From an uncultured Verrucomicrobiota bacterium (lineage in GTDB: Bacteria; Verrucomicrobiota; Kiritimatiellia; CAIQIC01; Lenti-01), in assembly GCA_937860055.1 (NCBI GenBank), contig CALMBO010000014.1:25132-89131 (forward strand): DNA of 64,000 bases, in the 5' to 3' direction. The notes beneath the pieces were generated by a model, which was given only the letters and a program-made list of their open reading frames with translations, was not told where the DNA came from and ran no database searches. The translations under genes were made by a program, and so were the position numbers. Shown one piece after another: positions 1-20,313 of the stretch. How positions within the stretch are numbered: position 1 is the first letter of the stretch; each line of letters starts with the position of its first letter.

Positions 1-1
1 G

Positions 2-364: not shown

Positions 365-808
365 ACGGCGGCACCGCAGAGGGGGTAAGCATTTTGCGAC
401 GGCATCCGTCCCCGATTTGAACCATGTGATTCGTTTCTGGGGCAATTCTGACACTGGTGCCAAAATCGAGTTTGGGCGGCAGGCCGGTTTTCCGCGTGAC
501 GGACGAAGCCCCAATTCCCATCAGTTCACCCTTGGCATCTGGCGTAGTTCTTAGCTGAAAATCCAACGGTAAAGGGGGCGGGTACACTGAAACCGAAAAT
601 GGCCAGAGGGAAGGATGTCCATGGGGCTTTGCAGCGGCGGCTTTGTCGAGGGACTCCTGGGGCGCTTCTCGAAACCGACCGGGGTACAGTTCTCTTGGCG
701 GGGAACACTGTTTCAAATATGGACAATAGTAGGAAGTGTTGCTACTCCCCGCGACAATTTGAACCTCGCGGTTCAGATTGGACCAGATATGGCAGGCCTT
801 TTGTTGTG

Positions 809-1846
809 TTAAATGGAGAAGTGAGTATTAGGTTGCCATGACGGCACGGAAAGGGGGAACCCTTTCAATTGGTTGAAGGACATATTTAGAGGATCGACAT
901 TTGAGAGAAAGGCTTTCCTGAACAGGTTCTGATTCTGTTGCCCAAGAGAGTCGAACCAGTCCGGAGATAACGCAAGGTTTTCCGTTTGGCAGGCAACAAG
1001 CCATACAAGTGCGGAGGTGATGTCCGCTTGATTTATAAGGGATGCGACAAGGGTTGTTGGTGCCGAATTTGCCGTGTCAAGATGTGACAAAAGGGCAAAA
1101 CTGCCCGTGCTGGATGGGATAATCGTGATCATCAGGTGGCTGAGATCGACATCAACATTGTCGAAATCCTGGAGATCATTCCCGTTGAAATCGAAATCAG
1201 GCGCGTACAGAAAATTGCACACAAGCCCGGGTCTATCAGCAAACGGAATTATCGTAGTACAGAGGCGGCGCCAATCGTTTTGCTGGAATATCGAGTCCAT
1301 TTTAGCCTTCAGTCGCTCGATTTCCTCTGCGCCACGCAAAGATCCCGCTTGATGAAGAAGTGCGAAATCAGAGGGCTGCAGGTTCAATTCATCCGGCAAG
1401 TTGTGGATGGCCTTGATCGTTTCTGGCGAAGGCTGTGTTTCCGCCTGCTTGCGCTTCAGGTAGCATTCCTTAGCGACCGCTCTATAGGCGTGCAGGAAAC
1501 ATTGTTCGGGAGTACACATAAACGCTACGGTTTCAATTGGAGCAAATAGATCCCGATCATGTTTCGCGCAGAAACCATTGAACACGGAGGTGTCCCTAAT
1601 GCCTTTAAGGACAAGACGGGTTGCGCCATCTGCATTAGCGGTAAAAAGGTCCGTTTCCACGGCATAAACATGGCCGTCCCGTGCGATGGGCCGGAGCATA
1701 CTTTCGGCCGACAGAGTATGAGCGGATATTACAGGTCCCTGGCAGTCTTGCGTGGGGGCCATGCATTTCTTGGCACTAAATCGCTTCCGAAATGACCGGA
1801 TAAGGTCAGCTGCGGCCTTTGGATTTGGCAAATCACCAATGTTCAT
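809..1846 (-). CDS. hypothetical protein (345 aa)
   Basis: A 345-codon ORF is unlikely by chance at about 52% GC. It is the last gene of a long co-directional minus-strand gene string. No recognised domain; it contains a Cys/His segment (GFCAKHDRDLF). Confidence 0.55.
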   Translation of the reverse strand: MNIGDLPNPKAAADLIRSFRKRFSAKKCMAPTQDCQGPVISAHTLSAESMLRPIARDGHVYAVETDLFTANADGATRLVLKGIRDTSVFNGFCAKHDRDLFAPIETVAFMCTPEQCFLHAYRAVAKECYLKRKQAETQPSPETIKAIHNLPDELNLQPSDFALLHQAGSLRGAEEIERLKAKMDSIFQQNDWRRLCTTIIPFADRPGLVCNFLYAPDFDFNGNDLQDFDNVDVDLSHLMITIIPSSTGSFALLSHLDTANSAPTTLVASLINQADITSALVWLVACQTENLALSPDWFDSLGQQNQNLFRKAFLSNVDPLNMSFNQLKGFPLSVPSWQPNTHFSI

Positions 1847-2379
1847 ATATGAAACTAATCCAATGCCATTATTGGGCGAGGCTGATGGCCGGCATCGTCA
1901 GAAAAAGAAGTCCCCGTCCCTTTAGAGGCTGAGGGTTTCCTGATCCAGATGTCCGAGGACATCCTTTTCTACTCGTCTCTTTTTGGTTGCGCCGGCCTTT
2001 GCCTGTACATGTTGATCAAGCAGAGCCCTTGCCTTTCGATGCCGCGCTTTTCCGTTGCTTTGCTCGCCGACATTTACTCTGGGGCATGTTACAACATCTC
2101 GTTATCTGAAACCACAAAAAATCGCCAATTGTTTGCGGGAAAAATAGACGATTATAAGGTTGCTGGGCAGTGGCGGTGGCCGTGCGAACAAGGCAACTAT
2201 TATCAGTGAAAATGTGGCGAATGGGTGTCGGTTCAGACGTTCCGCCATGCGTTTGAGGGATTCGGATAGCCTTGTCAGCCCCTCGATGTCCCACAGCCCC
2301 CTCACGATGACCCGCGTGGCATCCGGGACGAGACGGACACCCATGGGGCCATCTCATACCCATGGTTCATCGCGGGCCG

Positions 2380-2919
2380 TTATGGGAACAGCGGTGGGGT
2401 GCCGTAGCTATCCTGCTGCCGGTTCAAACCGTAGCCATCATCGGCAGGCAAATCGGGCCGCTTGAGCAGTAGGGTAGAAAGTTCATCAGCCCGCTCGTTC
2501 TCTGGATGGCCTGCGTGACCCTTGACCCAGACAAATTCAACCTGGTGCTTGTCGCAGGCTGTCAGGAGCCGTTTCCATAGATCCGCGTTAAGCGCTTTCA
2601 CCTTCTTGGTCCGCCACCATCCCTTTCCCTCCCAACGGCGAACCCAACCCAATGACATCGCATCGACCAGATACTTGGAGTCGCTGTGGAGTCGGACGCG
2701 ACAGGGTACCTTCAGGGCCTCAAGCCCGGCGATGGCGGCAAACAGTTCCATCCGGTTGTTCGTCGTCAGGCGGAAGCCGCCATGCAGTTCCTTCCGAACA
2801 TCGCCGTGAATCAGGATGGCTCCATAGCCTCCAGCCCCCGGATTGGGTTCGCAGGCACCGTCGGTGTAGATCTCTACTGTTCCTGGAGCTTCATAACCTT
2901 TGGAATTATCGCGGTTCAT
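2380..2919 (-). CDS. rnhA: ribonuclease HI (RNase H type 1)
   Basis: Carries the conserved RNase HI blocks: EIYTDGAC..NPGx[25 protein letters not shown], and [21 protein letters not shown]. Start overlaps the upstream stop as ATGA. Confidence 0.85.
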
Positions 2920-3353
2920 AGAATTTCTTTCTTATCTTTCAGGTAATGTTCCAGTTTGTCATGGGAGAATACATCCGAGCCTCGGACTCCGCAGTTCAGA
3001 AACCTCAAATAGTAGTTTCGGGTATGCCGTTGATTTCTGGGAACGTTGTTCCAATTCCGCGTATGCAGATTGATTTCAACCGGCTGGACAACTATCTGGG
3101 AGTCATATTGAAATACCCGTCCGGAATAACTATTTGGCAGGCGGTGTCGTCGTTTATCGGCCTGAAGTCGTCGGTCACCCCGCGCTGAGCCGTCCCTTCC
3201 GGAATACGGCTTCCCGTCGATCATGCGCCGTCTATACTCGGCATTATGCGATGTGCTCGCAGGATCCTGGGATTTTCCGTTGATACCGCTCCATCGGATG
3301 CAGGTATAGTCCATGCTGGATGATGCATTATGGTCAGCTGTTTTCGTAGTCAT
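2916..3353 (-). CDS. hypothetical protein (145 aa, R/N/Q-rich)
   Basis: ORF is translationally coupled (ATGA) to the rnhA start. Composition is odd and there is no motif. An internal Met at 3314 would remove the overlap with the upstream gene. Confidence 0.3.
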
Positions 3354-3867
3354 GGTTGATTTCCTTTTCGCTATGGATGATTCGCAATGTGTCTTTAAAG
3401 GCTTCGGAATTCTCTAGCATCCACCACCCGAACACTCGCCTCCTTGGCCATCTACTTAAGTCATTCCGAGGATCGCGGATGTCGCATATTGAGCCGCCTA
3501 TAACCGCCACCCAATAATTGCTGAGGGTAACTATCAATCTGCCCATCGGTATGTCAGCCTCTTCCAAATACAATTTGCAAGCCCTTCCCCGTCGTCTAGG
3601 CGGATGCCAAACGAAACCCATGTTTTTCATGTAGTGGAGAAACTGGGCGTGGTTTGTGCATACCCCGTTCCTCGCTGTCTGCACTCCTGCGAGTCGGTGA
3701 TCAGGAAAGAATGTGCTGTAATAATTAGCATTCATTTCGGCACATTCTTTGTAGACCGCCTTGTATGGTCTTTTAGCTGCTATCGCGATTGCGCGGACTT
3801 CGCAGTCGCCGCAGTGACCTTTATAGCCTGCGGCCCTTCGCCCGCCATCTGTGAAAATTACCTCCAT
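3334..3867 (-). CDS. hypothetical protein (177 aa)
   Basis: Co-directional with the neighbouring minus-strand genes. No recognised domain. A competing plus-strand ORF at 3604-4095 looks like low-complexity antisense. Confidence 0.4.
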   Translation of the reverse strand: MEVIFTDGGRRAAGYKGHCGDCEVRAIAIAAKRPYKAVYKECAEMNANYYSTFFPDHRLAGVQTARNGVCTNHAQFLHYMKNMGFVWHPPRRRGRACKLYLEEADIPMGRLIVTLSNYWVAVIGGSICDIRDPRNDLSRWPRRRVFGWWMLENSEAFKDTLRIIHSEKEINHDYENS

Positions 3868-4109
3868 ATTGTCTCTCCTCTTGATGTCGTCATTTGTGGA
3901 TCTCGCAAATTGCCCATCATGCTGTCAGCCGTAACGATCATTTGCCCCGGCTCGTTCGCCGAATCGAACATCCCTCTGAGTCGGACGCCGATGCCTTTGC
4001 GAACAGGTCGAGGGCGGTGGGCGGGAGCATGTTTCCCGAGCAAACAACTTCCAGTTGAACTCTATCAGGGATTATTCCATATTTATGCCTCCTAGATGAT
4101 TCACCGCCC

Positions 4110-4724
4110 TCAGTAGATCCTAAATTCGCCCTTCGCCAACCAAGACGCAAAGGTTCGGAGAGCCTCGGCGCCCTCCAGGACGCGGGGATTCTGGTTCGTC
4201 TGGTCCTTGTCTTCCAGGCGATAGATGGAAGCGGCTACTTTGCAGGCCAATCCGGCCCGGTCCTCGGGTAATCCAATCGCGCCGCTCCTATCGAGTTCCG
4301 CGGCCGCCTGTTCGAGTGCGGCGGACATTCCCAGCGCATCTTCCGCCGCCACATATTGACCGTCGTTGCTCAAATACGACCCGCGCCAGTCGAGATTGCG
4401 GCGAGATGGGATGTCGATGGGATCGACGCCTCCCCATTGGGCGGAGTAAACCGCAAGCAGTTCCTCATAGGTCTGGCCGTTCCATCCGGTAGCGTGTTCG
4501 GCGAGTTCTTCCGGAGTCGTTCGATCATACAGCTCATCCATGTCCACGCTATAGACTGCGCCCTTCCCGGCGCCATATTGAAAACCAGCGGCATCCGGGG
4601 TTATGAAGTATTGGGTTCCCTTTGGAATCCATCCGAACCGCTCCATCGTACGCAATAACATAGACCATTGTCCCCCCATGTAGTAATCCTTCGCCTCTCC
4701 GTCCCTGCATAGTATGTAGCTCAT
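4110..4724 (-). CDS. hypothetical protein (204 aa)
   Basis: ORF with a 4-nt overlap to the upstream gene (operon-like). No recognised domain. Confidence 0.5.
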   Translation of the reverse strand: MSYILCRDGEAKDYYMGGQWSMLLRTMERFGWIPKGTQYFITPDAAGFQYGAGKGAVYSVDMDELYDRTTPEELAEHATGWNGQTYEELLAVYSAQWGGVDPIDIPSRRNLDWRGSYLSNDGQYVAAEDALGMSAALEQAAAELDRSGAIGLPEDRAGLACKVAASIYRLEDKDQTNQNPRVLEGAEALRTFASWLAKGEFRIY

Positions 4725-5491
4725 ATTGTTTCCTCCTTTGTTGCGGTTGCCTGATCTGAATGCAAATGGCCGTTATCCATCCCGCCATTGTTTTGCTCCG
4801 CATCTTTTGGAGAGAGCCTGATCTGTGCGCTGGATTCTGGAGCCGTTGGGTCCGACAACAGCGCCCCCATCTCCGCCGCCATGTCCACTTGGTCGTCGCC
4901 CTCCTTGGGAAGCGTCCATGTGATTTCGAACCCACCTTCTACACCTTTGACCCGGCATGAAGCGCTGGCCGCGCAGTCCCAGTCTAGTCTAAGGATGTCA
5001 GGGTCAAATGCGATGCGCGTAGGGCTCCAGTCGCCCATGTCCACATAGAGCCCGCCCTTGCCGAGTGCTTTCTGATCGTCAGCATCGTCGTCTTGAGTCC
5101 ACGGGATGTGCCTTTTGATTACCGCACCGCTCAGCAGGTAGATCACCCAATCCAAATCGAACGGCAGAAGCCTAACCATTCCAGTGAAACCGCCACCAAG
5201 GTGGCCTCTCGCTGACCACGGAGAGAAGTCCATTCCCGCTTTTTCCTCCTCTAGGTAATCCGCAAACGATTTCAAGGTGAAATGGGCGCGAATTAGGGAT
5301 TCACTCGACTCGGGGCTATCAAACGGGGGAGCGTCCTTGTCGAGGGCCCATAGGTACACCAGATTGACCCGGTCATAGAAGGGCTGGCCATTCGCATCGA
5401 CGAGAACTTCGCAGATGTCTTGGCATTCGAATGTGGCAATTGAGTAGTTGGAGTATCTTCGTAGTATTTCCAGTGCGGTTGTTTTTTTCAT
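4721..5491 (-). CDS. hypothetical protein (256 aa, acidic)
   Basis: ORF in the same operon. No recognised domain. Confidence 0.55.
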   Translation of the reverse strand: MKKTTALEILRRYSNYSIATFECQDICEVLVDANGQPFYDRVNLVYLWALDKDAPPFDSPESSESLIRAHFTLKSFADYLEEEKAGMDFSPWSARGHLGGGFTGMVRLLPFDLDWVIYLLSGAVIKRHIPWTQDDDADDQKALGKGGLYVDMGDWSPTRIAFDPDILRLDWDCAASASCRVKGVEGGFEITWTLPKEGDDQVDMAAEMGALLSDPTAPESSAQIRLSPKDAEQNNGGMDNGHLHSDQATATKEETI

Positions 5492-5494
5492 GGA

Positions 5495-6400
5495 TTAGTT
5501 CTCCTCTTGATTAAGACCCGTCTGCGGAACCTCGACGACGCTCGGCGGTTCTCCTGGCGTCCCGACATATTGCGCCTTGACGGAATCCCATTCGCCCATA
5601 CTGCGGTCGATACAGAGCCGACATTCCATACAGCGGATAGGCTTGCATTTGCCATTTCCCAGCGCGGGGCTCCCATTCTTGTTTTGCGCTATATAGATTT
5701 TGCTCTCATATGGACATACCAGAGCGCCGCCCAACCGTTCCAGAGTGCCGTTGTGAGGCATTCGTAGATTTCTGAAGACTAGATCAACGCCAGGGGGCGG
5801 AATGTCATCGTCAGTTTCGGCGAGGTAGGTGATCAGGCCGTTGCCAATTGGATTCGGCATCCCATATTTGGCCACCATGTCGCTGTCCGTCGAAAGGTTG
5901 ACCCTGACCATATTGTGTTTCCCAGCCAATTCCTCCAAGGTGGTTCGGAACGGCTCGTTCCGCCATGCTCGGGTGTAGATGAAGTAGTTGAGATTCGTCG
6001 TATCTTCGGTCGCCGAGACGATCTCTTCCCATTTGTTTAGGTATTCGACAGAGTAGAACTCTCCTTTTTCGTGCAAGGCCACGGACACCCGTTCGTCTGG
6101 ATGGTTCTCTGTGAACTGGACAATCTCGGTTGTGATTGTCTCGATGAATTCAGGCTTCGTTGTGAGGTCGTAATTCTCAGCGTATCGCTCATGGTGGAAA
6201 AGAAACTGCCCCGTCGAGGCATAGCAATATTGGCGGCATATTATCGAAGCAAACGGACACCTGTTGTTGGGCATCCCAATCGACCATGCCAGTACATTGC
6301 ATCCCTTCTTGCTTACGGTGTTGGATAGCCAACCTCTCCTGACCGTTCTCCTGACCGCTGGGCTTTCGCCCGCCATATTATCATTCGCTTGTATCTTCAT
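5495..6400 (-). CDS. hypothetical protein with Cys-rich C-terminus (301 aa)
   Basis: First gene of the minus-strand operon. Cys clusters CPFASIICRQYCYAS and CKPIRCMECRLC suggest metal binding. No family assignment. Confidence 0.55.
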   Translation of the reverse strand: MKIQANDNMAGESPAVRRTVRRGWLSNTVSKKGCNVLAWSIGMPNNRCPFASIICRQYCYASTGQFLFHHERYAENYDLTTKPEFIETITTEIVQFTENHPDERVSVALHEKGEFYSVEYLNKWEEIVSATEDTTNLNYFIYTRAWRNEPFRTTLEELAGKHNMVRVNLSTDSDMVAKYGMPNPIGNGLITYLAETDDDIPPPGVDLVFRNLRMPHNGTLERLGGALVCPYESKIYIAQNKNGSPALGNGKCKPIRCMECRLCIDRSMGEWDSVKAQYVGTPGEPPSVVEVPQTGLNQEEN

Positions 6401-6647
6401 TCTGATTCTCCTTTTGGATTATGAGAATCTTTATACATCGAAAAATGGCCGCCCTTAAAAAATGCGTAAAATAGTTATGCGGATGCGCGGGAAACAAAGA
6501 ATTCCCATGAAAACCCCAATAATTCTGCCGATCTGCCCCCTTCAGTATTTGTGAAATATCCCCCAAGAAATATTTTCGCTGGAAGGACAGGATAAATATT
6601 TGTGAGCACGGAATAACCAGTCATCCAACAAATAGGAGGACTGGAAA
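6401..6647. promoter_or_regulatory. AT-rich divergent intergenic region between the minus-strand cargo operon and the plus-strand RHH/primase operon
   Basis: A 247-bp non-coding AT-rich stretch lies between divergent first genes. An AGGAGG Shine-Dalgarno sequence sits just before the ATG at 6648. Confidence 0.4.
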
Positions 6648-6833
6648 ATGCGTACATCAGAAAGAATGAAGGGTAAAAGACCGGTGCAGGCTGTTGTCAG
6701 CGATGAACAATATCGGCGGTTGCGGATCAGAGCGGCCATGGAATTGACCAGCATCAGCGACTTGATTCGGATTCGACTGGCGGACATCATCGACCCCGAG
6801 GCGGACTTCGCGGCCATGACGGTTCCCCGCTAG
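6648..6833 (+). CDS. ribbon-helix-helix (CopG/MetJ-like) DNA-binding protein
   Basis: 61-aa protein with the pattern KRPVQAVVSDEQYRRLRIRAAMELTSISDLIRIRL, typical of an RHH beta-strand followed by two helices. It sits directly upstream of a primase gene. Confidence 0.6.
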   Translation: MRTSERMKGKRPVQAVVSDEQYRRLRIRAAMELTSISDLIRIRLADIIDPEADFAAMTVPR

Positions 6834-6950
6834 AAATAGAAAGGCCTCCCGCGCAAGAGAGGCCTGAATAGCAGAAACCAACCGGGAAACCGCCTTCGTA
6901 TAACTATTTCATCGTCAGAACATGGTTTCCCTTCTTCCCGGGGAAACAAA

Positions 6951-8684
6951 ATGGAACAAATATCAACCGACTACTCTGCCAAACTAAACGCGGACGCAAA
7001 TATGCTGAAGGAGTTCTTCAGCATGCTCTTTGACCCCGATGAATCCGTATTGATCGTCCCGGGGCTGAATACAGAGAGATTCAAGGCTCTCTGTGCAAAT
7101 CTCGAAGGCTGGCCAAAGGAGATTGGGGGAAGGGAAACCACCTACTTCAGCAAGAAACTAGGCCGCATCCAACCTCGCCGTTATCTCAATCCATTTTCCC
7201 GTTCCCCGACCTCCGCCTCGACCCGGAACCTCGTAGCCCTCCACGAAATAAACCGGCAGGGATACGACATCTATTTCGCCATCAATCCTATGTCCTGCCG
7301 CCGCAGATGTCAGAAGACGGTCACAATGGCGAAACACGTTCTAGTTGAATCGGACACCAGCGATATCGACGCCCAACTTCGCTTTCTGAAGGAATACGAA
7401 GCCAACATCATCTCGGCCGTCCAGTCCGGTGGCAAGTCCATCCACTGCCTTGTTCGCATAGAGCCTTCACGATTGCATCCAGGGGCTGTCGGATGGAGGG
7501 AGGCCTATAGACTTCCCAAAGGCGAGACCAAGGCTCCGTGGGCCGAATACAGGCAAATTGGGGACTACTGGATTGCTGAGGCTCATAAACATGGAATGGA
7601 AATCGACACCGCGGCGGCCCATGACCACTCAAGGGTATCGAGGGTTCCGGGGTTCCTGCATGGCAAAACAGGCCGGAGGGCTGAAGTTGTCAAAATGAAC
7701 CCTATGGCCTCCTGGGACTGGAGGGGATCTGTGAAATCTTCGATGCTTGTGAGGTCGTCGATATTGTCGATATCACCGAATCAAGATGATGATGATTCAT
7801 TTTCAATATTAAATCCGAAAACCGAGTCTTTTTGTGAACTATTGGGGACTTTTGGGGACTTGAAGGAGACTAGGGAGAATAGAGACCCCGCCACGACTAA
7901 TGTTGTGCGCATAATCGGCCCGTATAGCCAGTGCCAACATCATGGAACTAGTTTTCTGGATGTATTGGACGACTTCGGGCGCCTGCGAGAGAGCGGGCTG
8001 CCCGGCCGACATACAAGGCGAAGTATGCATCGAACGCTCTTCGAGGCGGCAAGGGTCTATCGGTGGTCGATTCTTCAGATGGCCAGAGAATGGAGGCGAA
8101 TAATCAAAAGAAATCCGAAAGCAACCGTTGAGTCCGTTAAAAGCGCGGGGAGAGACATGTTGCGGGCGTGGAAAGCAACAGATGGAGTTGGGATCTACCT
8201 GCCCGATGTGACCAAATTGCCAGATCTTGACGATGCTAAGCGGGCGGTGTTGCAGACCCGGCTGGTCGGAATGGGCTGCAATGAGCCAAGGAAAGCCGCC
8301 AGAATCATCGAGCGGGTCATCCTGCCTCTTATCAAGAGCCTGCCGCGCCAATGTCGACAGGGGACTGTAGGCATCAAATCCAGAGCGCTTCGAGAGGCCG
8401 CTCATATATGGGGCCATTCGAGGGATTACAGGCACTTGTGGGAATGGATGCAGAAGGTCGGAATTGTCACCTGCATGAACAGCGATTACGTGCCGGAGAG
8501 TAGAACCCGGCAGTATGGCGTTAACATTCTTCTGGTCATATGGCTCTGCGGCTTCCGCACGGAGGAACTGGTCTGGAACACGGTAGCCAGTAACATATGG
8601 CCAGAACTTGCCCGCATGCGCGTGATCAACGATGGTGCGGTGGACTTTGGGGCTACAGAGTCTGAATTGCATTCAACCGGTTAG
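6951..8684 (+). CDS. primase-polymerase (archaeo-eukaryotic primase superfamily, RepB'-like/PrimPol-like) with C-terminal extension; no helicase motifs
   Basis: N-terminal AEP motifs are present: YDIYFAINP, the acidic motif HVLVESDTSD, and SGGKSIHCLV (sGxG.H). There is no Walker A motif anywhere in the 577 aa. Confidence 0.65.
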   Translation: MEQISTDYSAKLNADANMLKEFFSMLFDPDESVLIVPGLNTERFKALCANLEGWPKEIGGRETTYFSKKLGRIQPRRYLNPFSRSPTSASTRNLVALHEINRQGYDIYFAINPMSCRRRCQKTVTMAKHVLVESDTSDIDAQLRFLKEYEANIISAVQSGGKSIHCLVRIEPSRLHPGAVGWREAYRLPKGETKAPWAEYRQIGDYWIAEAHKHGMEIDTAAAHDHSRVSRVPGFLHGKTGRRAEVVKMNPMASWDWRGSVKSSMLVRSSILSISPNQDDDDSFSILNPKTESFCELLGTFGDLKETRENRDPATTNVVRIIGPYSQCQHHGTSFLDVLDDFGRLRESGLPGRHTRRSMHRTLFEAARVYRWSILQMAREWRRIIKRNPKATVESVKSAGRDMLRAWKATDGVGIYLPDVTKLPDLDDAKRAVLQTRLVGMGCNEPRKAARIIERVILPLIKSLPRQCRQGTVGIKSRALREAAHIWGHSRDYRHLWEWMQKVGIVTCMNSDYVPESRTRQYGVNILLVIWLCGFRTEELVWNTVASNIWPELARMRVINDGAVDFGATESELHSTG

Positions 8685-8900
8685 GGAATCGCTTGATTTT
8701 TGTCCAAGTCCGCGCGCGAGTGGCAAGTTGATTGGGCAGGTGGGGGCGTCAGGGCGGAATGGCCTGAAGAGCGCGTCATGGGGCTTCGTGAGGCTGAAGG
8801 CTGTCAGATCCTAAACGCCCAGCCTTCTCCTGGCACCGAGAAACAGAACCTTCCAGATGTCTGGAAAGTTCGCCACAATGTCGGCATATTGTGGGATTAC

Positions 8901-9950
8901 CTATTCGAACTCGATCGAGTAGACATTCCCTTGCTTGATGGTGAAGAAGCCTTCCCTGCAAGACTTATTACGGGGTTTTCCTCGTTGTGCGGAAGCGATG
9001 ACCGCAAGGTCGAATCCGGCTTGAGCCTCAGTTTTGCTCGCGAAAATGCGATACATACTAAGAAGGGCTTGTTTGTGGATTCCGAGACGTTCCGAGGCGA
9101 TGATGTCCACCAATAAGCCGTAGCCAGACCCTGGGCGGAAGGGATTCTTTGGGTGACGGAGCAGGTTAGCCACAGGAGTTCCCTTGTATGAGCTTTCGGT
9201 GGGATTGCTTTTGGCTGGGATATTCTCGGCAACCGGCTTGGCCTTCTTGGCGGGAGCCATTCTCGCAGGCTTGGCGGGCGGGACCTTTTCCAAGTATTCC
9301 TGCACTGACGCTTTTATAGCGAACGATGCATTTGGATCAAAGATATCCCATCCGCATGCCGGAGGATGTCCATGTTTCTTCCAGTATTCCATGACGGAAA
9401 TCGGAATTTCGGTGGCAAGTCGATAATAGACATCCTTGCCGATGGCCATTTTCTCGACCACCGACCGCCAATTGTTGTCGGGATGCAAGGGGTTGGCCAC
9501 CACGCCAAAGGCCAGATAGAACATTGTAACATCTATTGTGCCGTTGGCACCCATAAGTGTCAGTTTATCAGATGTAAGATGACCATTATTAAGCAGTTCC
9601 CAAGTTCTGGCCGCCTCGGAATTTGGATGATCTAGGAAAGGGTTATTGGTGGCGAGGGGATGCGTTCCAGACTGTTTGGCTTTCACCGGAACTCTGGCTT
9701 TTTGTTTGTGCATATGTACAATCTCGAATGCACTCAATCCAATGTCAATCCTGAACGGAGCCCGCCTGTGATTTCTAAAACAAAACCTTCCCGTCATGAT
9801 TTGATGATAAGGGTGTATGCTGACATTCTTCGGGGCATCCACTATCGCCATGAGTTCGCCAGAAGGGATCCCGTCGTTAGAAATAAATGCGAGGGCATCA
9901 TTGACGCTCTGGGTTCTAATCATGAGTCCTTCTCGGCATTCGAGGCCCAA
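8901..9950 (-). CDS. hypothetical protein (up to 349 aa; true start may be an internal Met near 9797-9851)
   Basis: Long ORF with a Lys/Pro-rich central linker (KAKPV..PAKS). It overlaps plus-strand ORFs at both ends, so the strand assignment is uncertain. Confidence 0.4.
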   Translation of the reverse strand: MGLECREGLMIRTQSVNDALAFISNDGIPSGELMAIVDAPKNVSIHPYHQIMTGRFCFRNHRRAPFRIDIGLSAFEIVHMHKQKARVPVKAKQSGTHPLATNNPFLDHPNSEAARTWELLNNGHLTSDKLTLMGANGTIDVTMFYLAFGVVANPLHPDNNWRSVVEKMAIGKDVYYRLATEIPISVMEYWKKHGHPPACGWDIFDPNASFAIKASVQEYLEKVPPAKPARMAPAKKAKPVAENIPAKSNPTESSYKGTPVANLLRHPKNPFRPGSGYGLLVDIIASERLGIHKQALLSMYRIFASKTEAQAGFDLAVIASAQRGKPRNKSCREGFFTIKQGNVYSIEFE

Positions 9951-10670
9951 GACGGAAGCCTGTTGGTAGATATTCTGGCCAAGGCCTATCGAAAGGCCAA
10001 GAAGAATACGGACGGATCAAATATCCAAAAAGATCTCTCCGCATTTTTTATATCCTATGGAATATTGCCCATTGCACCATTGGGAAGGCCATTCTTAGGC
10101 GAGAACATTAGATTGAATCGGAAAACTGGAATACCGAGTCATAATTATGGAGAAAGCGACCATATTTGGCTGAAAATAGTTTGGAACAAGCTGTTGGCAT
10201 TTGAGATATTTGCTATGGCGGAATTCTCATTGCCTCATCCGATAATGATGCCGGTCCTGCCGCTATCATTGCCAACGACTAAAACAGGCAATAATGATCT
10301 TCGAGAGAATGTCGAGGTAACGCCAACCTCATTGCCTGTGTACATCAACATCCTACAGTCTCCCGAGGTGTTGGCGAACTACATTACTGCTTTTGCGGAG
10401 CAAGGAAGAGAGTCTCGCCTTTTGCAAATGCCAAAACAAGAGTCGGACTATAGAAGCGTTAAGACCGACGAGAGCAAATACGAGCGGTATCTTGATGCCC
10501 TTGATCTGGATTTGAAGTGCCAAGAAGGAGTACCATACGGCGATAAGTATGAATATTTTCAACGATACAACGACTTCCATAATCCAACTGGCGACGCCAT
10601 CATCACGTTTTACAAGGATTCAAGAAGATGTGCCCGGTTGTACCGTGATAAATACCGGCTAATTGTCTGA
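9660..10670 (+). CDS. hypothetical protein (up to 336 aa; alternative start at 9804)
   Basis: Long ORF co-directional with the plus-strand operon. It overlaps the 5' end of the minus-strand ORF at 8901-9950. No recognised domain. Confidence 0.35.
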   Translation: MRSRLFGFHRNSGFLFVHMYNLECTQSNVNPERSPPVISKTKPSRHDLMIRVYADILRGIHYRHEFARRDPVVRNKCEGIIDALGSNHESFSAFEAQDGSLLVDILAKAYRKAKKNTDGSNIQKDLSAFFISYGILPIAPLGRPFLGENIRLNRKTGIPSHNYGESDHIWLKIVWNKLLAFEIFAMAEFSLPHPIMMPVLPLSLPTTKTGNNDLRENVEVTPTSLPVYINILQSPEVLANYITAFAEQGRESRLLQMPKQESDYRSVKTDESKYERYLDALDLDLKCQEGVPYGDKYEYFQRYNDFHNPTGDAIITFYKDSRRCARLYRDKYRLIV

Positions 10671-10827
10671 TCGCCCGCATTTACTCCTGACTCTTTAAGT
10701 TTCCTGTTTCTCGCCTTGATTGTCCTCTCAGGGTGAAGCCAGACGTGTGCCCAATCTCCCCCTAGTGCCGGTCGCTTATGTAATATAGAGACATTAAATT
10801 AGCCACAGTTAACTAAAGGACTGTGGC

Positions 10828-11613
10828 ATGAAAAAGACATCCAAGACGGCGCCGGCAAAAATGGCCGGCAAGACATCTGAGCCCACCGGGCAGACGGCGA
10901 CCACGAAGCGCGCCCGCCAAGTAAAACCTTCTGGATGTCTGGAAGGTTCAGCCTCAAGCGGTCTGCCGAAGAAGAATGCCGACGACATCATCGCCATGCA
11001 TGGCGAAGAGGCCTACAAGTACTACTTCGACAGCGAGGACGGGAAGTATTCTATCGGAGCGGAAGCTGGCGGGGCTACAAAAGAATTGCGGGGGACCGAC
11101 GCGCGCGTACCCAATGAACTCTATGTCTGTCGGGCTCTCTCCCAGTACCTCCAGAAGAAAGGGATAAGGGATGTCTCGTCCTCGACGATCTATGACTGGA
11201 TGCGTTCCGATGAAACCCGCAAGGCGCTTGGCGGTAAAGGCAAGGCTCCCAAAATCTCTATCAGCTTCTATGTAGCCGTCAGCCGGGATGACATCCCAAT
11301 TGAGAAGCGGCGGGAACATCTCGAATATGCGATTAAACATTCACTGACAGTCGGGGGGCTCAAGGATCGTATCTTTGGGAGAGAGGGGGTAAGTGGGATC
11401 GGCGATGGCGATGCTGCAGGCGAGGGGGCCATATCGGACATCGCAACAGCCGAGCGGATTATCAGCGAATCCCGGTCGTTATTGTTGGGCCATTATGAAG
11501 AGTTTCGCTCAATCGATCCCGCGCAGAACAGTAGTTCCATCGCTCTGCTGGAAAACCTAGCAATCTATATCTGGCAACTGCGGGACGATATTGCCAACGG
11601 CGGACCTAAGTAG
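10828..11613 (+). CDS. hypothetical protein (261 aa)
   Basis: ORF preceded by an inverted repeat that embeds the RBS. No recognised domain. Confidence 0.55.
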   Translation: MKKTSKTAPAKMAGKTSEPTGQTATTKRARQVKPSGCLEGSASSGLPKKNADDIIAMHGEEAYKYYFDSEDGKYSIGAEAGGATKELRGTDARVPNELYVCRALSQYLQKKGIRDVSSSTIYDWMRSDETRKALGGKGKAPKISISFYVAVSRDDIPIEKRREHLEYAIKHSLTVGGLKDRIFGREGVSGIGDGDAAGEGAISDIATAERIISESRSLLLGHYEEFRSIDPAQNSSSIALLENLAIYIWQLRDDIANGGPK

Positions 11614-11624
11614 GGGGATGACGA

Positions 11625-12797
11625 ATGAAATCGCTGAAACACATTCCCGATGTATCGACGAAGAACATGGGCAACAAGGATAAGACCGGCGTCCAAGCCG
11701 ACGGCACCAAGAAATCTCTGCTGAAGGCCATTTCTGAAGCCATCGGCGATTGTCCCGAAGGAGTTATCGACCTGACCGCCGGGAGTCTTGCGGTATCCCT
11801 GCATCTGAATTCCATTTGCGGGAAGCGGGTAATCGCCAACGATTGTCGTAAGGCGTCATATTACACGGGGCTGGCCTTTTTCAACAGCGATGGGGTGGTT
11901 ATCGGGGCCAAAGATATCGAACTGCTCCAACATGGTGGTCTTGTCGCCGGTCCCGTAGTCAAACTGCTCGAGTCAGTCTTGGGCAAAAATAACGCAACGC
12001 AATTTGACCGGATCATCCGCAACCTGGGTTGTCTTGCCGGTGCCGGTGCCGAACAGAAGCGTATCATTGCGATAGCCGGCATCCTCCAGGCTATCTCCGG
12101 AGCCCTCAACGTCTACCATCTTCGGGGGGCCAACAGGGACTGCGGTGCCGCCGGGAACGAACATCTCAGGGATGCCGATCTTATCTCCGAATGGCGGGAA
12201 TGGGTCCTTGTCAAGCATCCGGAGATCGCCAAGGGGATTACCCTCGGTTGCGAAATCTACAACGAAGACGCCGTCTCGCTTATGCAGGATAAGAAGCCTT
12301 CAGCATCCTGCCTATATTTAGATCTTCCATACGGAATAGGAAATTATATTGCCGACCTTAAGGTCTTCGAGGACATCTGCAATCTTTGCGAGGGGAAACG
12401 GCCAGGCGACCCGGTATTCGGGCGCCCCGCTCAACCTAAACATCGGTTCGACAACCGCATCGACTACATTGGCAACCTGACGAAGCTGCTTCTGGGGTCC
12501 GACCATATCCCGCGCTGGGTGATTTCCATTAATACAAGTTCGCCCGTTAAGCCCGAAGAGATTGTCAGGATTGTCCGGTCTTTTGGCAGGAAATGCGAAA
12601 TCCGGCGTTACAAGGTCTCCCTGGCAACCAACCGCAAGAGGGCAACTCCCCTCGAAAATTATGAATGCTTGATCATATGTACGCCAGACGCCGAGCTTGA
12701 AAAACAAATTTCAGGCATTCGCAGTCGTTTCGAATCAATGGCCAGTTCCCGCCGTCTATTGTCTCCGAGTACGGGGAACAAACAGGAGCGCAAATGA
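11625..12797 (+). CDS. N6-adenine DNA methyltransferase, Dam-like (alpha-class) candidate
   Basis: An N-terminal AdoMet-binding-like block (VIDLTAGSLAVSLHLN) resembles Dam FxGxG. A downstream DPPY-type motif reads CLYLDLPYGIG. The motif order (FxGxG then DPPY) fits the D12/Dam class. Confidence 0.55.
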   Translation: MKSLKHIPDVSTKNMGNKDKTGVQADGTKKSLLKAISEAIGDCPEGVIDLTAGSLAVSLHLNSICGKRVIANDCRKASYYTGLAFFNSDGVVIGAKDIELLQHGGLVAGPVVKLLESVLGKNNATQFDRIIRNLGCLAGAGAEQKRIIAIAGILQAISGALNVYHLRGANRDCGAAGNEHLRDADLISEWREWVLVKHPEIAKGITLGCEIYNEDAVSLMQDKKPSASCLYLDLPYGIGNYIADLKVFEDICNLCEGKRPGDPVFGRPAQPKHRFDNRIDYIGNLTKLLLGSDHIPRWVISINTSSPVKPEEIVRIVRSFGRKCEIRRYKVSLATNRKRATPLENYECLIICTPDAELEKQISGIRSRFESMASSRRLLSPSTGNKQERK

Positions 12798-12906
12798 AAG
12801 GGTCGGGTCTGACAATCGATTTTCGCTTTGGCGAGTGTCCAAGAGCGATGGAAAGAAGAAACGCCCAATAGGGCATAGGCCGAATAACCAGAAGGACGAG
12901 GAAGAA

Positions 12907-13218
12907 ATGAAAAAGATACAAGACGGGCTCAAGTACGACACCGAAACGGCGACCCTTGTCGCAGAAGACTGCAACGGGCACGACCGTAGCAATTACAACT
13001 ACTGGACAGAGCAACTCTACCGCACACAGAACGGTCGGTGGTTCGTGTACAAGGCTGGCGGGGCCAACACCCAGTATATGGTCAAACTCTGCGATGGGCG
13101 AGGCTTCGGAGAGTCCATTGAAATCCTCGACGATGAGGCAGTCAAGGAGTGGCTCGAAGAGCACAACAAGGGCGAAGCATACGAGAAGTACTTCGGCAAC
13201 GAAATCAAGAATGCATAA
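12907..13218 (+). CDS. small hypothetical protein (103 aa)
   Basis: A good Shine-Dalgarno sequence (AGGACGAGGAAG) precedes the ATG at 12907. The longer 12697 start lacks an RBS. No motif. Confidence 0.4.
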   Translation: MKKIQDGLKYDTETATLVAEDCNGHDRSNYNYWTEQLYRTQNGRWFVYKAGGANTQYMVKLCDGRGFGESIEILDDEAVKEWLEEHNKGEAYEKYFGNEIKNA

Positions 13219-13281
13219 AGCAATAGGGGATACCTGCAGACAAGACTCCGCAGGGGTCTCCACTAAAACAAAGGCAATGAG

Positions 13282-14109
13282 ATGAAATCACATAATCAGA
13301 TCAAAGAATCGAAAGTACACCCCCGTCCCGCCAGCGGAACTGGCGAATGGGCAGAGGAAAACATCAACATTCAGACCGGCTGCAACCGGGACTGCAAATA
13401 TTGCTATGCCAAATGCATGGCGGTTCGGTTCCGCCGCGCGACACCAGAATCGTGGCCCGACCAGGTTGTTGATGAGGCCAAGGTAAAAAAGCATTACGGT
13501 AAGTCGAAAGGCCGGGTTATGTTTCCCTCGACCCACGACATCAGCCCCGAAAACATCCAAGACTGTCTGCAGGTCATGGATTGTTTGCTGAAGGCCGGTA
13601 ACGACATCCTCGTTGTCAGCAAGCCCGAACTAGCCTGCATCAAGAGCATCTGCGCCAGATTCATAAACAATAAGCGACAGATACTCTTCAGGTTCACCAT
13701 CGGTTCAGCGGACGATGCAATTCTCACAAAATGGGAGCCGAACGCATCCTCATTCGGCGAGAGGCTAAAATGTCTCAAGCACGCTTACGCATTAGGCTAC
13801 GGTACTTCAGTCTCCTGCGAACCGATGCTGGATGCCCAGGTTGGCAAAGTCATCAAAGCCGTATCGCCATTCGTCACCGACTCGATCTGGTTGGGTCGGA
13901 TCAATCGGCTCCGCCAGACAATCGCGATCAATTGTCCTGGCGACGAAAGCATCAAAGCGCTGGCGAACCAATTACTGGCAGAGCAGACCGACGACTGGAT
14001 TCTGGCTCTGTATAATAACTTCAAGAACAACCCAATTATTCGATTCAAGGACTCCATCAAGAAAGTGGTGGGTCTTATAAGGCCGACAATAAAAGGGTTG
14101 GACATATGA
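13282..14109 (+). CDS. radical SAM protein, SplB/COG1533-like (DNA repair photolyase-type)
   Basis: CxxxCxxC motif embedded as GCNRDCKYCYAKC, matching the GC...C.YCYA pattern of COG1533. Size is about 275 aa. Stop overlaps the next start. Confidence 0.6.
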   Translation: MKSHNQIKESKVHPRPASGTGEWAEENINIQTGCNRDCKYCYAKCMAVRFRRATPESWPDQVVDEAKVKKHYGKSKGRVMFPSTHDISPENIQDCLQVMDCLLKAGNDILVVSKPELACIKSICARFINNKRQILFRFTIGSADDAILTKWEPNASSFGERLKCLKHAYALGYGTSVSCEPMLDAQVGKVIKAVSPFVTDSIWLGRINRLRQTIAINCPGDESIKALANQLLAEQTDDWILALYNNFKNNPIIRFKDSIKKVVGLIRPTIKGLDI

Positions 14110-15175: not shown

Positions 15176-15416
15176 GAAGGCAAGCAAGGTCTCCGAGGCC
15201 TTAAGCACCTCCAGCTCCCCATTGGGTCGTTGGCTCTGCAAAGATCTCGACTCAATGGGACCCCTAGGCCAACTGGCCTCTCCGCTGTTCAAGGCCGGCG
15301 CCTCTTCGCTGCCTATGCAAAGGACTTAGAAATCTATTAAGGCAGGAAAGCCAGCGAAAAGCCCAACAGCTCGCCCTCGGCACTCTGCATCGGTCTGCCA
15401 ATAGGTCAGAAAGAAA

Positions 15417-17551: not shown

Positions 17552-19225
17552 TTGGCGACGGCTGCAGAAATGGACATGAAGAAAGGCAAAAAGAAGCGAG
17601 GCATTTGGCAGGACTTCCGCCCCTGTGACCCTGAGGGGAAGGCGTCGGCCGTCTACATTCGCATCTCCCGCGACGACGCCGGGGCGAAGAATCCCAAGGA
17701 GGCCAAGGAGTCCGCCCGGGTCCAGCAGTCGAAGTGCGAGGCCTACGCCAAGGAAAGGGGCTGGGCCGTCCGGCTCTATCAGGACATCAACCTTTCGGGC
17801 TTCGACGACGAGGGGCGTCCCGATTTCCAGCGGTTGCTTGCCGACATAAACGCAGGCCTCATCCACTCGGTCATCGTACTTGAGCCCAAGCGTCTAGCCC
17901 GCGACAACTCGATCATGGACGCGGTCGTCAAGGAATACCTCTATCCGAACGGGATCAAGCTCCATGGAGTAATGAGCCCGATCGACATCACGAACGATGA
18001 CGGGCTCTTCATGCTCGGCATCGAAATGGCCTTTTCCCGTAAGGCGATTTCGGAGCAGCGCAAGAAGTCCATGGCCTCCATCGACAGCCAACTGAAAGAA
18101 CACACCTTCATCCCCAGGCCATGCTACGGCTACCGGCGAGACGAGAAGGGGCGGATCCATGTGGTGGAGTCCGAAAAAGCGGTGATCCTGGAGATGTACC
18201 GGATGTGTCTCAAGGGCGACTCGATGAACGAGATCAGCGAATATTTCAACCGAGCCGGCGTCCCGGGCAAGCGGGGGGCTAGGTGGTGGACCCACCGGCA
18301 GATCAAGATCGTCCTGACCAACCCGGCCTACGTGGGCAAGATCCGCTACCGGGGCGTGCATGAGACCCGGTTGATCCCCAAGATGGTGACCAAGGAGACG
18401 CAGGACTCGGCGGCGGAGATGCTGGCCATCAGGTCCCACAAGCGGGCGCCATCCAAGCGGCACCTCTTGAGCGGGCTGGTGACCTGTTCATATTGCGCTG
18501 AAAAGGCGAGCAGGGGCGAACGGGCCTATCCGGCGATGGTCCTGAACATCCAGACGCAGGGCCCCAAGGGAGAGAAGAAGAAGTACGCCTATTTTTTCTG
18601 CCAGTCCCAGAACCGGGGTGTGTTCCATTGCGAGTCGCCCAGGGTTCCGGAAGCCGCCTTGGACGCCATTGTCGAAGGCACCATCGTCCCTTATGTCCTG
18701 GACAGGTATTCGAGGCAGATCGGCGCCGACTCGCACCAGGAGACCCTCAAGAGGCTGGAGGCGGCGAGGGGGCGGGTCCGTCTCGTCGAGTCACGCAACA
18801 AGGAGATCGAGGATTCGTTCGCCTCCGGGGAGATGGGGAAACTGGAATACCTTCGTCTGAGGGACAAGAACCAGGCGAAGTCGTCGGTTGCGAGAGAGGA
18901 GATATCCGTTTTGCTCCAGATGGCCGAGTCGGAAGACCCGAACAAGGTTCAAGAGGTCGTGGATGTCTTGCAAAGATGGCAGGAGATGCCCATGGAGAAA
19001 CGGCGGGACGCCATCCGCACCTTCATCGAGTCAATCGAGGTTTCCGCCGAGTGGGTGACCTTCCATATCAGGCCCGTCGGGGGCGACAAGTGGTCGTTCA
19101 ATGTCCGACTGGAAACCGTGCGGAGATACCAGGAGAAGCCCATAGGGGATCTGAAGAATCATATGGAATGGACGCTGGGGCAGGCGGGGTATGCTAACCA
19201 GGAACCTTGTCCCAATGTCGGTTGA
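17552..19225 (+). CDS. large serine recombinase (integrase)
   Basis: N-terminal resolvase-type catalytic region with the serine motif AVYIRISRDD, followed by a long recombinase domain and a C-terminal Cys-rich zinc ribbon (CSYCAEK...FFCQSQNRGVFHCESP). Length is 557 aa. It lies at the junction with host DNA. Alternative start at 17573. Confidence 0.85.
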   Translation: MATAAEMDMKKGKKKRGIWQDFRPCDPEGKASAVYIRISRDDAGAKNPKEAKESARVQQSKCEAYAKERGWAVRLYQDINLSGFDDEGRPDFQRLLADINAGLIHSVIVLEPKRLARDNSIMDAVVKEYLYPNGIKLHGVMSPIDITNDDGLFMLGIEMAFSRKAISEQRKKSMASIDSQLKEHTFIPRPCYGYRRDEKGRIHVVESEKAVILEMYRMCLKGDSMNEISEYFNRAGVPGKRGARWWTHRQIKIVLTNPAYVGKIRYRGVHETRLIPKMVTKETQDSAAEMLAIRSHKRAPSKRHLLSGLVTCSYCAEKASRGERAYPAMVLNIQTQGPKGEKKKYAYFFCQSQNRGVFHCESPRVPEAALDAIVEGTIVPYVLDRYSRQIGADSHQETLKRLEAARGRVRLVESRNKEIEDSFASGEMGKLEYLRLRDKNQAKSSVAREEISVLLQMAESEDPNKVQEVVDVLQRWQEMPMEKRRDAIRTFIESIEVSAEWVTFHIRPVGGDKWSFNVRLETVRRYQEKPIGDLKNHMEWTLGQAGYANQEPCPNVG

Positions 19226-19317: not shown

Positions 19318-20313
19318 ATGGGTTACAGTTTACACCACAGGGGATATTATTCCGACGTGAAGGGGCAGGAGTTCGCGCGTCGCGCGATCGAAGTGGCGGT
19401 GGCCGGTGGCCACAATATCCTCCTGGTGGGGCCGCCGGGCACGGGGAAATCCATGCTGGCCAAGCGGGTGCCGACGATCCTGCCGCCGCTGGGGCTGGAA
19501 GAGGCGCTGGAGACGACGAAGATCCACAGCATCGCGGGGGTGCTGCCGGCGCACCAGGCGGTGGTGGGGGGTCGGCCGTTCCGGTCGCCGCACCACACGA
19601 TTTCCGATGCGGGGCTGCTGGGCGGCGGCACGCATCCGCTGCCCGGCGAAGTCAGCCTGGCGCACAACGGGGTGCTGTTCCTTGACGAGCTGCCGGAGTT
19701 CCACCGCAACGTGCTGGAGGTGATGCGCCAGCCGCTGGAGGATGGCGTGGTGTCCATTGCGCGCGCGGCGGCTTCGGTGACGTTTCCGTGCCGGTTCATG
19801 CTGGTGGCGGCGATGAATCCGTGTCCGTGCGGGCATTTCGGGGATGCGAAGCGGGAATGCCGGTGCACGCCGGTCCAGATGCAGCGCTACCGAAACCGGA
19901 TTTCGGGGCCGCTGCTGGACCGCATCGACATCCACGTCGAGGTGCCGGCGATGGAATACCAGCAGCTGGCGTCGCTGGAGAAGGGGGAGTCCTCTTCGCA
20001 GATCCGGGAGCGGGTGGTGGCGTCGCGGGCGGTTCAGCGGGAGCGGTTCGCCAAGGGCCGGGGGGCGCATGCGATCCACTGCAACGCGGGGATGCGGGCC
20101 AAGGACGTGCACAAGCACTGCATGCTGGACGATGCGGCGCAAAGCCTGCTCAAGGCCGCGATGGCCGACCTGCACCTGAGCGCCCGCGCCTATGACCGGA
20201 TTTTGAAGGTAGCCCGGACGATCGCGGACCTGGCGGGGGAGGGCGACATTGCCGCCGACCATGTCGCCGAGGCCATCCAGTACCGCTCCCTGGACCGGCA
20301 ATACTGGACCTGA
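19318..20313 (+). pseudogene. comM: comM (Mg-chelatase-like AAA+ competence ATPase), 3' fragment; 5' part displaced by element insertion
   Basis: The 331-aa ORF aligns to the ComM/YifB C-terminal two-thirds only, beginning at [29 protein letters not shown] (Walker A). The N-terminal domain of about 170-190 aa is absent. The first codons are AT-rich junction DNA, and the GC switch occurs at about 19350. Confidence 0.75.

Follow-up and report, generated by a model that had tools for sequence, protein, structure and literature searches.

The 64,000-nucleotide stretch of DNA analysed here (the window) is part of contig CALMBO010000014.1 (assembly GCA_937860055.1) of an uncultured Verrucomicrobiota bacterium. 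Its first 19.3 kb (window 1-19300) are the visible part of an integrative island, the left end of which lies outside the window. Within the island two plus-strand open reading frames (ORFs), of 61 aa at 6648-6833 and of 577 aa at 6951-8684, are separated by a conserved spacer. The initial annotation had placed both genes correctly and described them as a ribbon-helix-helix (RHH) regulator followed by an archaeo-eukaryotic primase (AEP)-type primase-polymerase without a helicase. We consider it probable that the two genes and the spacer constitute the replication-initiation and copy-control module of the island. The features of this module are as follows.

6401..6647, no strand assigned: divergent intergenic region between a GP88-family gene and the RHH gene, locally the AT-richest DNA (38-44% GC)
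6648..6833, plus strand: RHH protein, 61 aa, putative Cop-like repressor of the operon (ORF and RHH-clan matches)
6834..6950, both strands: leader/spacer, 117 nt; the plus strand is the 5' leader of the primase cistron, the minus strand a candidate countertranscript RNA (ctRNA) gene
6834..6865, minus strand: intrinsic terminator, with hairpin 6865->6842 and U-rich tail UUCUAUUU 6841->6834, abutting the RHH stop codon
6884..6891, plus strand: 5' element GGGAAACC, proposed anti-sequestor arm, complementary to the middle element
6924..6931, plus strand: middle element GGTTTCCC, which pairs with either the 5' or the 3' element
6941..6948, plus strand: 3' element GGGGAAAC, which spans the purine-rich ribosome-binding region, 3-10 nt ahead of the primase ATG
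6951..8684, plus strand: AEP-family primase(-polymerase), 577 aa, putative replication initiator (Rep) of the island (ORF, family searches, model and fold matches)
6963..7754, plus strand: AEP catalytic domain, residues 5-268, with motif I E133-x-D135, motif II S163-x-H165, motif III D219 and motif IV R231-V232 with H237
7755..7943, plus strand: linker, residues 269-331, 63 aa, predicted to be disordered, acidic and poorly conserved (predicted local distance difference test, pLDDT, 25-34; alignment gappy and variable)
7947..8585, plus strand: family-specific C-terminal domain, residues 333-545, 213 aa, modelled as a four-helix bundle and a winged helix-turn-helix (HTH)

We place the 577-aa protein in the AEP superfamily. 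The three peptide strings in which the initial annotation saw an AEP/PrimPol signature are all in the translation, YDIYFAINP at residues 105-113, HVLVESDTSD at 129-138 and SGGKSIHCLV at 159-168. The signature is near-invariant in an alignment of 66 relatives that reaches down to 20% identity, where the residues conserved in at least 90% of the sequences include E133, D135, G160, S163, H165, D219, R231, P233, F235, H237 and G241. The catalytic acidic residues, on which the initial annotation had made the assignment depend, are thus present and conserved. Motif I has the E-x-D variant (LVE133-S-D135), like the solved PrimPol of cyanophage S-2L, whose GEWDD aligns with it. Motif II, S163-I-H165, aligns with the GGKSIH of the S-2L structure 6zp9 and the SGGKSIH of a family with the domain order PriCT_2-AEP-AAA_25, and motif III, I218-D219, aligns with the motif III Asp region of Sulfolobus PriS (1zt2). 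R231-V232, which is invariant, and H237 six positions on, conserved in at least 90%, correspond to the motif IV pair of PrimPol-PV1 and, with H165, give the H-R-H signature; an 'Rh' arginine in the flange strand and a coupled residue six positions on define this supergroup (PMC5862659). Judged by motif IV and by the structural neighbours of its model, the AEP domain belongs to PrimPol-PV1, where its nearest counterparts appear to be the All3500/RepB'/InversePrim-like enzymes. Primase/polymerase activity, including template-dependent primer synthesis, is putative.

The absence of Walker A/B motifs, also claimed initially, is right in substance. A loose Walker A pattern, [AG]x4GK[ST], matches AVQSGGKS (residues 156-163), which can be ruled out as a P-loop as it is AEP motif II and lies in the model beside and partly within a beta strand. 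The protein itself has no helicase domain, there is no P-loop ORF in window 1-19300, and no helicase gene was seen there or in the 3 kb more of island that a related locus, L001, provides.

Searches of Pfam, NCBIfam and, with the single sequence, the PDB gave no usable match for the 577-aa protein, while PHROGs gave phrog_2597 ('DNA primase', E 2e-14) over residues 107-172. A word-indexed search found 44 full-length relatives at 39-100% identity, all from metagenomes or metagenome-assembled genomes (MAGs) and none with a Pfam domain. The same search found 15 proteins of 668-748 aa with PriCT_2 and AAA_25 domains that match over the core only (E 3e-7 to 9e-4). A profile comparison with these proteins by hhalign (probability 99%, E 3e-18, 191 columns) pairs ALVESDS with VLVESDT, SGGKSIHAIVRV with SGGKSIHCLVRI and SRLSRMPG with SRVSRVPG. 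Of all proteins outside the family, such PriCT-AEP-RepA-helicase proteins, known from Firmicute phages and integrative and conjugative elements (ICEs), come closest in sequence (phmmer E values down to 3e-7) and share the motif II His, but they have an N-terminal PriCT_2 and a C-terminal AAA_25 domain, both of which the window family has lost or never had; it has a C-terminal domain of its own instead. Going by architecture alone, the 668-748-aa proteins may be equated with the 'InversePrim' family, which has the order PriCT, AEP, RepA-like helicase (PMC5862659). The only PLSDB and INPHARED matches are those of the AEP core to primase/helicases of Firmicute phages (28-31% identity). When 1.84 billion representatives were scored with a profile of the last 231 residues, only 84 proteins were recovered, and the family is thus rare; the full-length ones (500-700 aa) match at their C-terminal end. 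Ten more distant family members have no primase- or helicase-type Pfam match, and one of them has sub-threshold C-terminal HTH matches only.

For the AlphaFold2 model, 36 close sequences gave a poor N-terminal half, and the 66-sequence alignment gave a mean pLDDT of 84.1, with values above 90 for the domains at residues 5-268 and 333-545. The fold agrees with the motifs, RSF1010 RepB' being among the best structural matches. The matches, with their scores, are:

S-2L PrimPol AEP domain, 179 residues aligned at 19% identity: 16.3
RSF1010 RepB': 14.8 / 14.3
Prim-PolC: 11.1
Human, Sulfolobus and Pyrococcus PriS: 9.3-9.9
LigD PolDom: 8.9-9.7
CRISPR-associated Prim-Pol: 7.6
HP0184: 6.9

By sequence, too, the family profile finds the S-2L enzyme (E 0.004), aligning the three motif regions with GEWDD, GGKSIH and RVMRLAGCPHQRTG, and a Foldseek search of viral models (BFVD) returned phage primase/helicases. 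S-2L PrimPol belongs to the All3500-like family and is active as a primase-polymerase, and its own nearest structural relative is RepB' (PMC8065100). The S-2L protein is, however, a phage enzyme with PriCT-2 and VirE-like helicase domains, both absent from the window protein. RepB' (3h20/3h25), whose motif II contains Gln and which lacks a winged helix, works at the sites ssiA/ssiB with a separate RepA helicase and a RepC initiator, both encoded by the plasmid (PMC4538821); no equivalents of RepA or RepC and no ssi-like sites were found in the visible part of the island.

The initial annotation described the C-terminal 300 aa or so as a single region of unknown function. In the model this region resolves into the disordered linker, the folded domain and a disordered tail of 32 aa. 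The domain consists of a four-helix bundle (residues 333-410), weakly PriX/PriCT-like, and a helical region that ends in a winged HTH (approximately residues 428-545). It has no PriCT-1/2 or HTH match in Pfam, and similarity to PriCT-2 was rejected (hhalign probability 1%). An origin-binding role had been suggested for the C-terminal half, and the modelled winged helix fits that suggestion. We propose that the domain is a module for origin recognition and primer initiation.

The 61-aa protein matches FitA-like_RHH in Pfam only below the cut-off (E 0.012). A profile of five orthologues matches the RHH antitoxin 7e4j (E 1e-3), ParG and ParD, and single orthologues match RHH_10, ParD, FitA-like, Omega and NikA-like families, all of the RHH clan. 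These matches are weak but convergent, and the RHH fold is therefore well supported, which bears out the initial assignment; repression of the operon is its putative function. The intergenic region 6401-6647 is a candidate promoter/operator of the RHH-primase operon. It has a TTGTGA box at 6549-6554, conserved as invariant columns in a four-locus alignment and lying within the palindrome TATTTGTGAAATA (6546-6558), a possible -10 box, TATTTT, at 6571-6576, and a ribosome-binding site (RBS) for the RHH gene, AGGAGG, at 6634-6639. The TTGTGA/TATTTT pair scores 8/12, under the threshold of the promoter scan.

The spacer is at least as well conserved as the genes it separates. Mean pairwise identity is 0.66 in the spacer versus 0.61 in the RHH coding sequence, 0.53-0.56 in that of the primase and 0.44 upstream, and between the window and locus L006 the spacer identity is 0.84 versus 0.41-0.52. 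It opens with an A-rich run followed by a GC-rich hairpin (6842-6865), which together form the minus-strand terminator; the terminator scan scores it with 9 pairs and the tail TTCTATTTCT. A hairpin and T-rich tract are present in all 11 close loci and, with an unrelated hairpin sequence, in the distant L093 and L095, that is, in 13/13. Three one-sided stem changes are informative, two of them in the terminator and the third in the start-proximal hairpin; each leaves a G.U pair when read on the minus strand but C.A when read on the plus strand, which favours a minus-strand RNA.

The spacer also contains three complementary elements. The 3' and middle elements can form 7 bp with a 9-nt loop, which we propose to be an RBS-sequestering hairpin. 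In this helix 96% of cells are paired across the loci versus at most 77% when it is slid, and UA is replaced by CG on both sides in L089, L098 and L100. The alternative helix of the 5' and middle elements has 90% of cells paired in 11 loci versus at most 75% when slid, and one column has changed on both sides in L098 and L100. The layout is rebuilt with other sequence in L093 (GGGGCGAT/ATCGTCCC/GGGTCGAT) and L095 (GGGACGAT/ATCGTCTC/GGGACGAT), and in each of the two a perfect TATAAT, read on the minus strand, separates the 5' element from the middle one. The strict form of the arrangement was recovered in 0-10 of 2000 shuffles. Rfam gave no match to the spacer at the gathering threshold, only far sub-threshold ones.

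The constant part of the related loci is a 61-64-aa RHH gene followed by a spacer of about 115 nt and the primase gene; L095, which has no RHH gene, is the exception. An RHH orthologue of this size is found at the same position in all eight related loci with gene calls, and of the distant loci L093 has an 82-aa RHH-like ORF. L095 is a distant relative (36% identity) with a divergent XRE-like HTH gene (1670-1933, minus strand) in place of the RHH gene. Its minus-strand terminator and three-element leader are kept (2436-2580), which points to a link of the leader with the primase and not with the repressor. Frequent neighbours of the module are a divergent GP88-family gene on one side and a gene of about 260 aa with a D12-like methyltransferase gene on the other. 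The primase is in every case located in an integrated island, but the integrases vary between islands (serine; tyrosine; HTH_17 with a gene of about 400 aa), as does the cargo, which includes a cyclic-oligonucleotide-based anti-phage signalling system (CBASS), C5 and N6 methyltransferases, SIR2, Eco57I/MmeI-like enzymes and RNase H. Conservation of the RHH-primase pair while integrase and cargo vary is as expected for a backbone replication module.

Helicase-less Reps with AEP, PriCT and HTH domains are an established class, and in the case of ColE2 Rep, for example, one protein binds the origin, synthesises the primer and, by means of its PriCT-1 and HTH domains, opens the duplex, no helicase being encoded by the element (PMC5862659; PMC4538821). 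The window protein shares with ColE2-P9 Rep, with RepE/RepS of the Inc18 plasmids (pAMbeta1, pIP501, pSM19035) and with PrimHYQ an N-terminal AEP domain, an alpha-helical domain and a C-terminal (winged) HTH, and like them it has no NTPase domain; no helicase gene is present in the visible part of its element. Genes for ColE2- and Inc18-type Reps are controlled by antisense RNAs and, in Inc18 plasmids, also by Cop repressors. The differences are that the AEP core of the window protein is closest to other branches of PrimPol-PV1, that its C-terminal domain is family-specific, that a 63-aa disordered linker separates the domains, and that the element is an integrated island and not a plasmid. 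Neither ColE2 Rep nor RepE/RepS turned up among its sequence and profile matches, in which no comparison was aimed at them. By analogy the window protein may work like these Reps, without membership among them being implied.

The order of the parts recalls pMV158, in which the 48-nt RNAII is encoded on the opposite strand in the copG-repB spacer, ends in a GC hairpin and poly(U), and has a target that starts right after the copG stop (PMC4485353). The repressors CopG and CopB each share a transcript with the rep gene that is their target (PMC5717011). In copG-rnaII-repB of pMV158, and in copB-copA-repA of R1, as in the window, a small repressor gene (RHH in pMV158 and the window) lies co-oriented directly upstream of rep; in pMV158 an opposite-strand terminator, a GC-rich hairpin with a U-tail, likewise abuts the repressor stop and the target is just upstream of the rep translation signals. 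The window cassette is nevertheless analogous to the pMV158 family and not a member of it, because its Rep is an AEP primase and not an HUH rolling-circle nuclease. Its spacer is also longer, with three-element alternative pairing, its ctRNA is only a candidate, and its context is an integrative island in a Gram-negative host like those of the Planctomycetes-Verrucomicrobia-Chlamydiae (PVC) group.

The best reading of the module, and a fairly likely one, is therefore a ColE2/RepE-like helicase-less Rep primase under the control of a repressor and a countertranscript. We infer that the island replicates autonomously after excision, as the initial annotation had suggested, and that the protein binds its origin. 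The AEP domain would synthesise a primer and possibly extend it, and the helical bundle and winged helix would recognise the island origin and assist initiation, as do the PriCT-1-HTH modules of ColE2 Rep and RepE/RepS-type primases. Elongation and unwinding of the excised circle could be left to the host, either by Pol I or by a recruited host helicase with Pol III. The helicase recruitment envisaged in the initial annotation is only one of two options, because ColE2 Rep opens its origin itself (PMC5862659). The RHH protein, co-transcribed from the upstream gene, would repress the operon promoter. The leader would fold in two ways, with the RBS free when the middle element pairs with the 5' element and sequestered when it pairs with the 3' element. 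A short minus-strand countertranscript, ending at the terminator beside the RHH stop, would cover the 5' element and drive the leader into the sequestered form. Together the RHH protein and the leader switch with its countertranscript would keep Rep limiting.

Several observations weigh against this interpretation. The iterons or AT-rich origin sequences that the initial annotation had proposed to look for were not found: there are no iterons (repeat families of at least three) in 6300-7000 or 8600-10900, there is no conserved AT-rich block, and no origin was identified. DNA downstream of the primase gene is not conserved, save for 114 nt common to L006. A 10-nt inverted repeat, ATAACTATTT (6469, 6900), and a repeat, CCGCCTTCG, were rejected as origin candidates as their placement is inconsistent across loci. 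Origins inside rep genes are known; a tandem repeat in the window gene, TTTTGGGGAC (3.2 copies, 7830-7861), in the linker-coding part with the lowest GC, is probably coincidental. No relatives of the primase were found in IMG/VR (2.9 million viral contigs) or GTDB (185,579 species genomes), and no full-length ones in PLSDB (72,556 plasmids) or INPHARED; these plasmids, viral contigs and species genomes thus offer no free replicon, proven as such, that has the module. In some relatives an AAA+ gene adjoins the primase gene, and a helicase or relaxase may sit in the left part of the island outside the window. As to the countertranscript, a sigma-70 consensus scan finds no promoter for it in the window or L093, and nothing in L095 but a weak site within the coding sequence of the primase; the TATAAT boxes of L093 and L095 have no -35, and the folding energies of the spacer are ordinary (z -1.0 and -1.4). 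The close family provides a single covarying column, because there have been few independent events. The PrimPol (Ppol) of Thermus ICETh2 has been reported to be dispensable for replication of its element (PMC7693054).

This last case would suit a different role for the primase-polymerase, namely that of an accessory enzyme of DNA-damage tolerance, repair, defence or anti-defence that stands under the RHH repressor and is not an initiator. We regard this as unlikely. It is true that in ICETh2 loss of Ppol reportedly left element replication unaffected (PMC7693054), that AEP PrimPols have varied repair and defence roles (PMC4538821), and that the islands are rich in defence cargo (CBASS, methyltransferases, SIR2) with no origin found. 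However, the RHH-primase pair is an invariant backbone while the defence cargo varies, none of the PADLOC defence-system models matched the pair, and a winged-helix domain that looks sequence-specific, together with plasmid-like control in the style of cop and ctRNA genes, fits an initiator better. Another role, which we think quite improbable, would be in transfer: helper conjugation would move the island as single-stranded DNA and the primase would prime the complementary strand in the recipient, like the Sog/TraC-type and MobA-RepB primases. Plasmid primases of the Sog/TraC type do prime the complementary strand in the recipient. In the visible part of the island, Pfam and PHROGs scans of the window proteins revealed no capsid, terminase, conjugation or relaxase genes, so the island must depend on helpers to move, and RepB', a structural relative of the primase, is found as a fusion with MobA relaxases (PMC5862659). 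Yet no relaxase gene, origin of transfer (oriT) or coupling-protein gene is present in window 1-19300 or in the related loci inspected, and tight dual negative control is typical of rep genes.

A further alternative, possible though somewhat doubtful, holds that the spacer is not a ctRNA gene. It could be a leader that acts purely in cis, its RBS hairpin being opened through translational coupling or through binding of a protein. It could also be a DNA site, either an origin or single-strand initiation (ssi) site for the primase or an operator for the RHH protein. The terminator would then do no more than stop antisense transcription that runs in from the convergent genes downstream. The lack of an identifiable ctRNA promoter in the window agrees with this, as do plus-strand G.U pairs in the 5':middle helix of L091, L093 and L095. 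The spacer is moreover the best-conserved non-coding DNA near the gene, with no other candidate for an origin, and RepB' recognises hairpin ssi sites (PMC4538821). Against it, the convergent minus-strand gene has its own terminator-like hairpin, the palindrome at 8846-8871, and the spacer terminator is placed exactly where rnaII of pMV158 ends. A minus-strand RNA is also what the one-sided changes in the terminator hairpin and the RBS hairpin favour, and L095 keeps the terminator without an upstream RHH gene.

The setting of the module is given by the right end of the island, where the following features were identified.

17552..19225, plus strand: large serine recombinase, the island integrase (Pfam and PHROGs matches)
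19330..19352, no strand assigned: approximate right junction between the island and a comM-like host gene (GC climbs from about 50% to about 65% across approximately 17-20 kb)

The recombinase, of 557 aa, has the Pfam domains Resolvase, Recombinase and Zn_ribbon_recom and matches phrog_95 (integrase, E 4e-77). Beyond it lies a comM-like gene (Mg-chelatase/YifB family, with Mg_chelatase domains) that lacks its first 195 or so codons; homology to the intact ComM of L009 begins at window 19352, at about residue 195 of ComM. In the window it is the serine recombinase that has put the island into comM. The other half of comM, like the left end of the island, lies outside the window, and the island measures at least 22 kb (L001 adds 3 kb). 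GC is about 50% from window position 1 to about 18,000 and then about 65%, and no tRNA genes are present in the window. The closest match of the ComM-like protein is to the rumen MAG RUG11196 (83%), followed by Lentisphaerae and Verrucomicrobiota. The island therefore sits in comM of a high-GC bacterium, probably of the PVC group.

Around the module, a GP88-family gene (PF17338, E 1e-22; 5495-6400, minus strand) is divergent from the RHH-primase pair and has the same position in L004, L008 and L099. Downstream of the primase the gene models conflict: an ORF at 8700-9116 on the plus strand (in L001 and L003 called with 112 or 138 aa) overlaps one at 8901-9950 on the minus strand (349 aa, called in L002), and neither has a family match. 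Further on, window 10828-11613 encodes the protein of about 260 aa, with RVP and GGxGKAP motifs and 21-24% identity between loci, for which Pfam and PDB searches matched nothing. It is followed by a gene like those of D12-class N6-adenine methyltransferases (11625-12797). This pair is found downstream of the primase in most islands (L004 12085-14114, L006 12443-14472, L098 12181-14072) and may belong to the backbone. In L099 (11868-13444) and L100 (11742-13324) an AAA+ gene (253 aa; weak RuvB_N/DNA_pol3_delta2 matches) and a gene of about 271 aa are convergent to the primase; these could encode a helicase-loader or clamp-loader-like accessory, absent from the window. A radical S-adenosylmethionine (SAM) protein at 13282-14109 is weakly similar to TIGR04470, the radical SAM mobile pair protein B (E 3e-8, far under the cut-off), and a gene for its partner A is not evident. 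The genes at 14106-14957 and 15417-16127 are neighbouring paralogues without a family match that have in common EWLKDSHCLD, WDADPKRPF and a C-terminal ...SLYL.V...EWPF.YVGPS..(S/A)DD; GQVSHGKS in the second is not a P-loop because it is not conserved in the first. The left arms of L001 (1-1100), L006 (390-2710) and L008 (82-2402) contain a CBASS-like set of a DncV-like nucleotidyltransferase, E2-CBASS and a 4HFCP_synth-like gene, together with DUF6602, an M78 peptidase and a sigma-70-like gene. The islands are therefore carriers of defence genes.

The family, its C-terminal domain and their pairing with a cop/ctRNA-like leader in PVC-like integrative islands are undescribed as far as our searches show, while the kind of system is well known. 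Since helicase-less AEP initiators, like the control of rep by repressors and antisense RNAs, belong to textbook plasmid biology, what the finding adds is a family and not a principle. With it, an unannotated family of approximately 84 clusters without a Pfam model gains a fold and a likely role, and a conserved backbone is identified for a set of defence-gene-carrying islands of poorly studied gut, rumen and environmental bacteria. The finding also offers a compact candidate replicon and RNA control element for organisms without genetic tools, and a C-terminal domain without detectable relatives that may show another way for a helicase-less primase to find and open an origin. More speculatively, and with considerable doubt, the module may represent a previously unrecognised type of replicon whose native setting is the integrative defence islands of uncultured, Lentisphaerae/Verrucomicrobia-like bacteria of the PVC group. 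In this replicon a single helicase-less AEP protein with a lineage-specific origin-binding domain would start replication of the excised island, its synthesis being set by a countertranscript-driven three-element RNA switch. If this were true, control logic so far known from small plasmids would be joined to an AEP Rep in a chromosomal island, and the module would provide a minimal replicon for genetic tools in intractable phyla.

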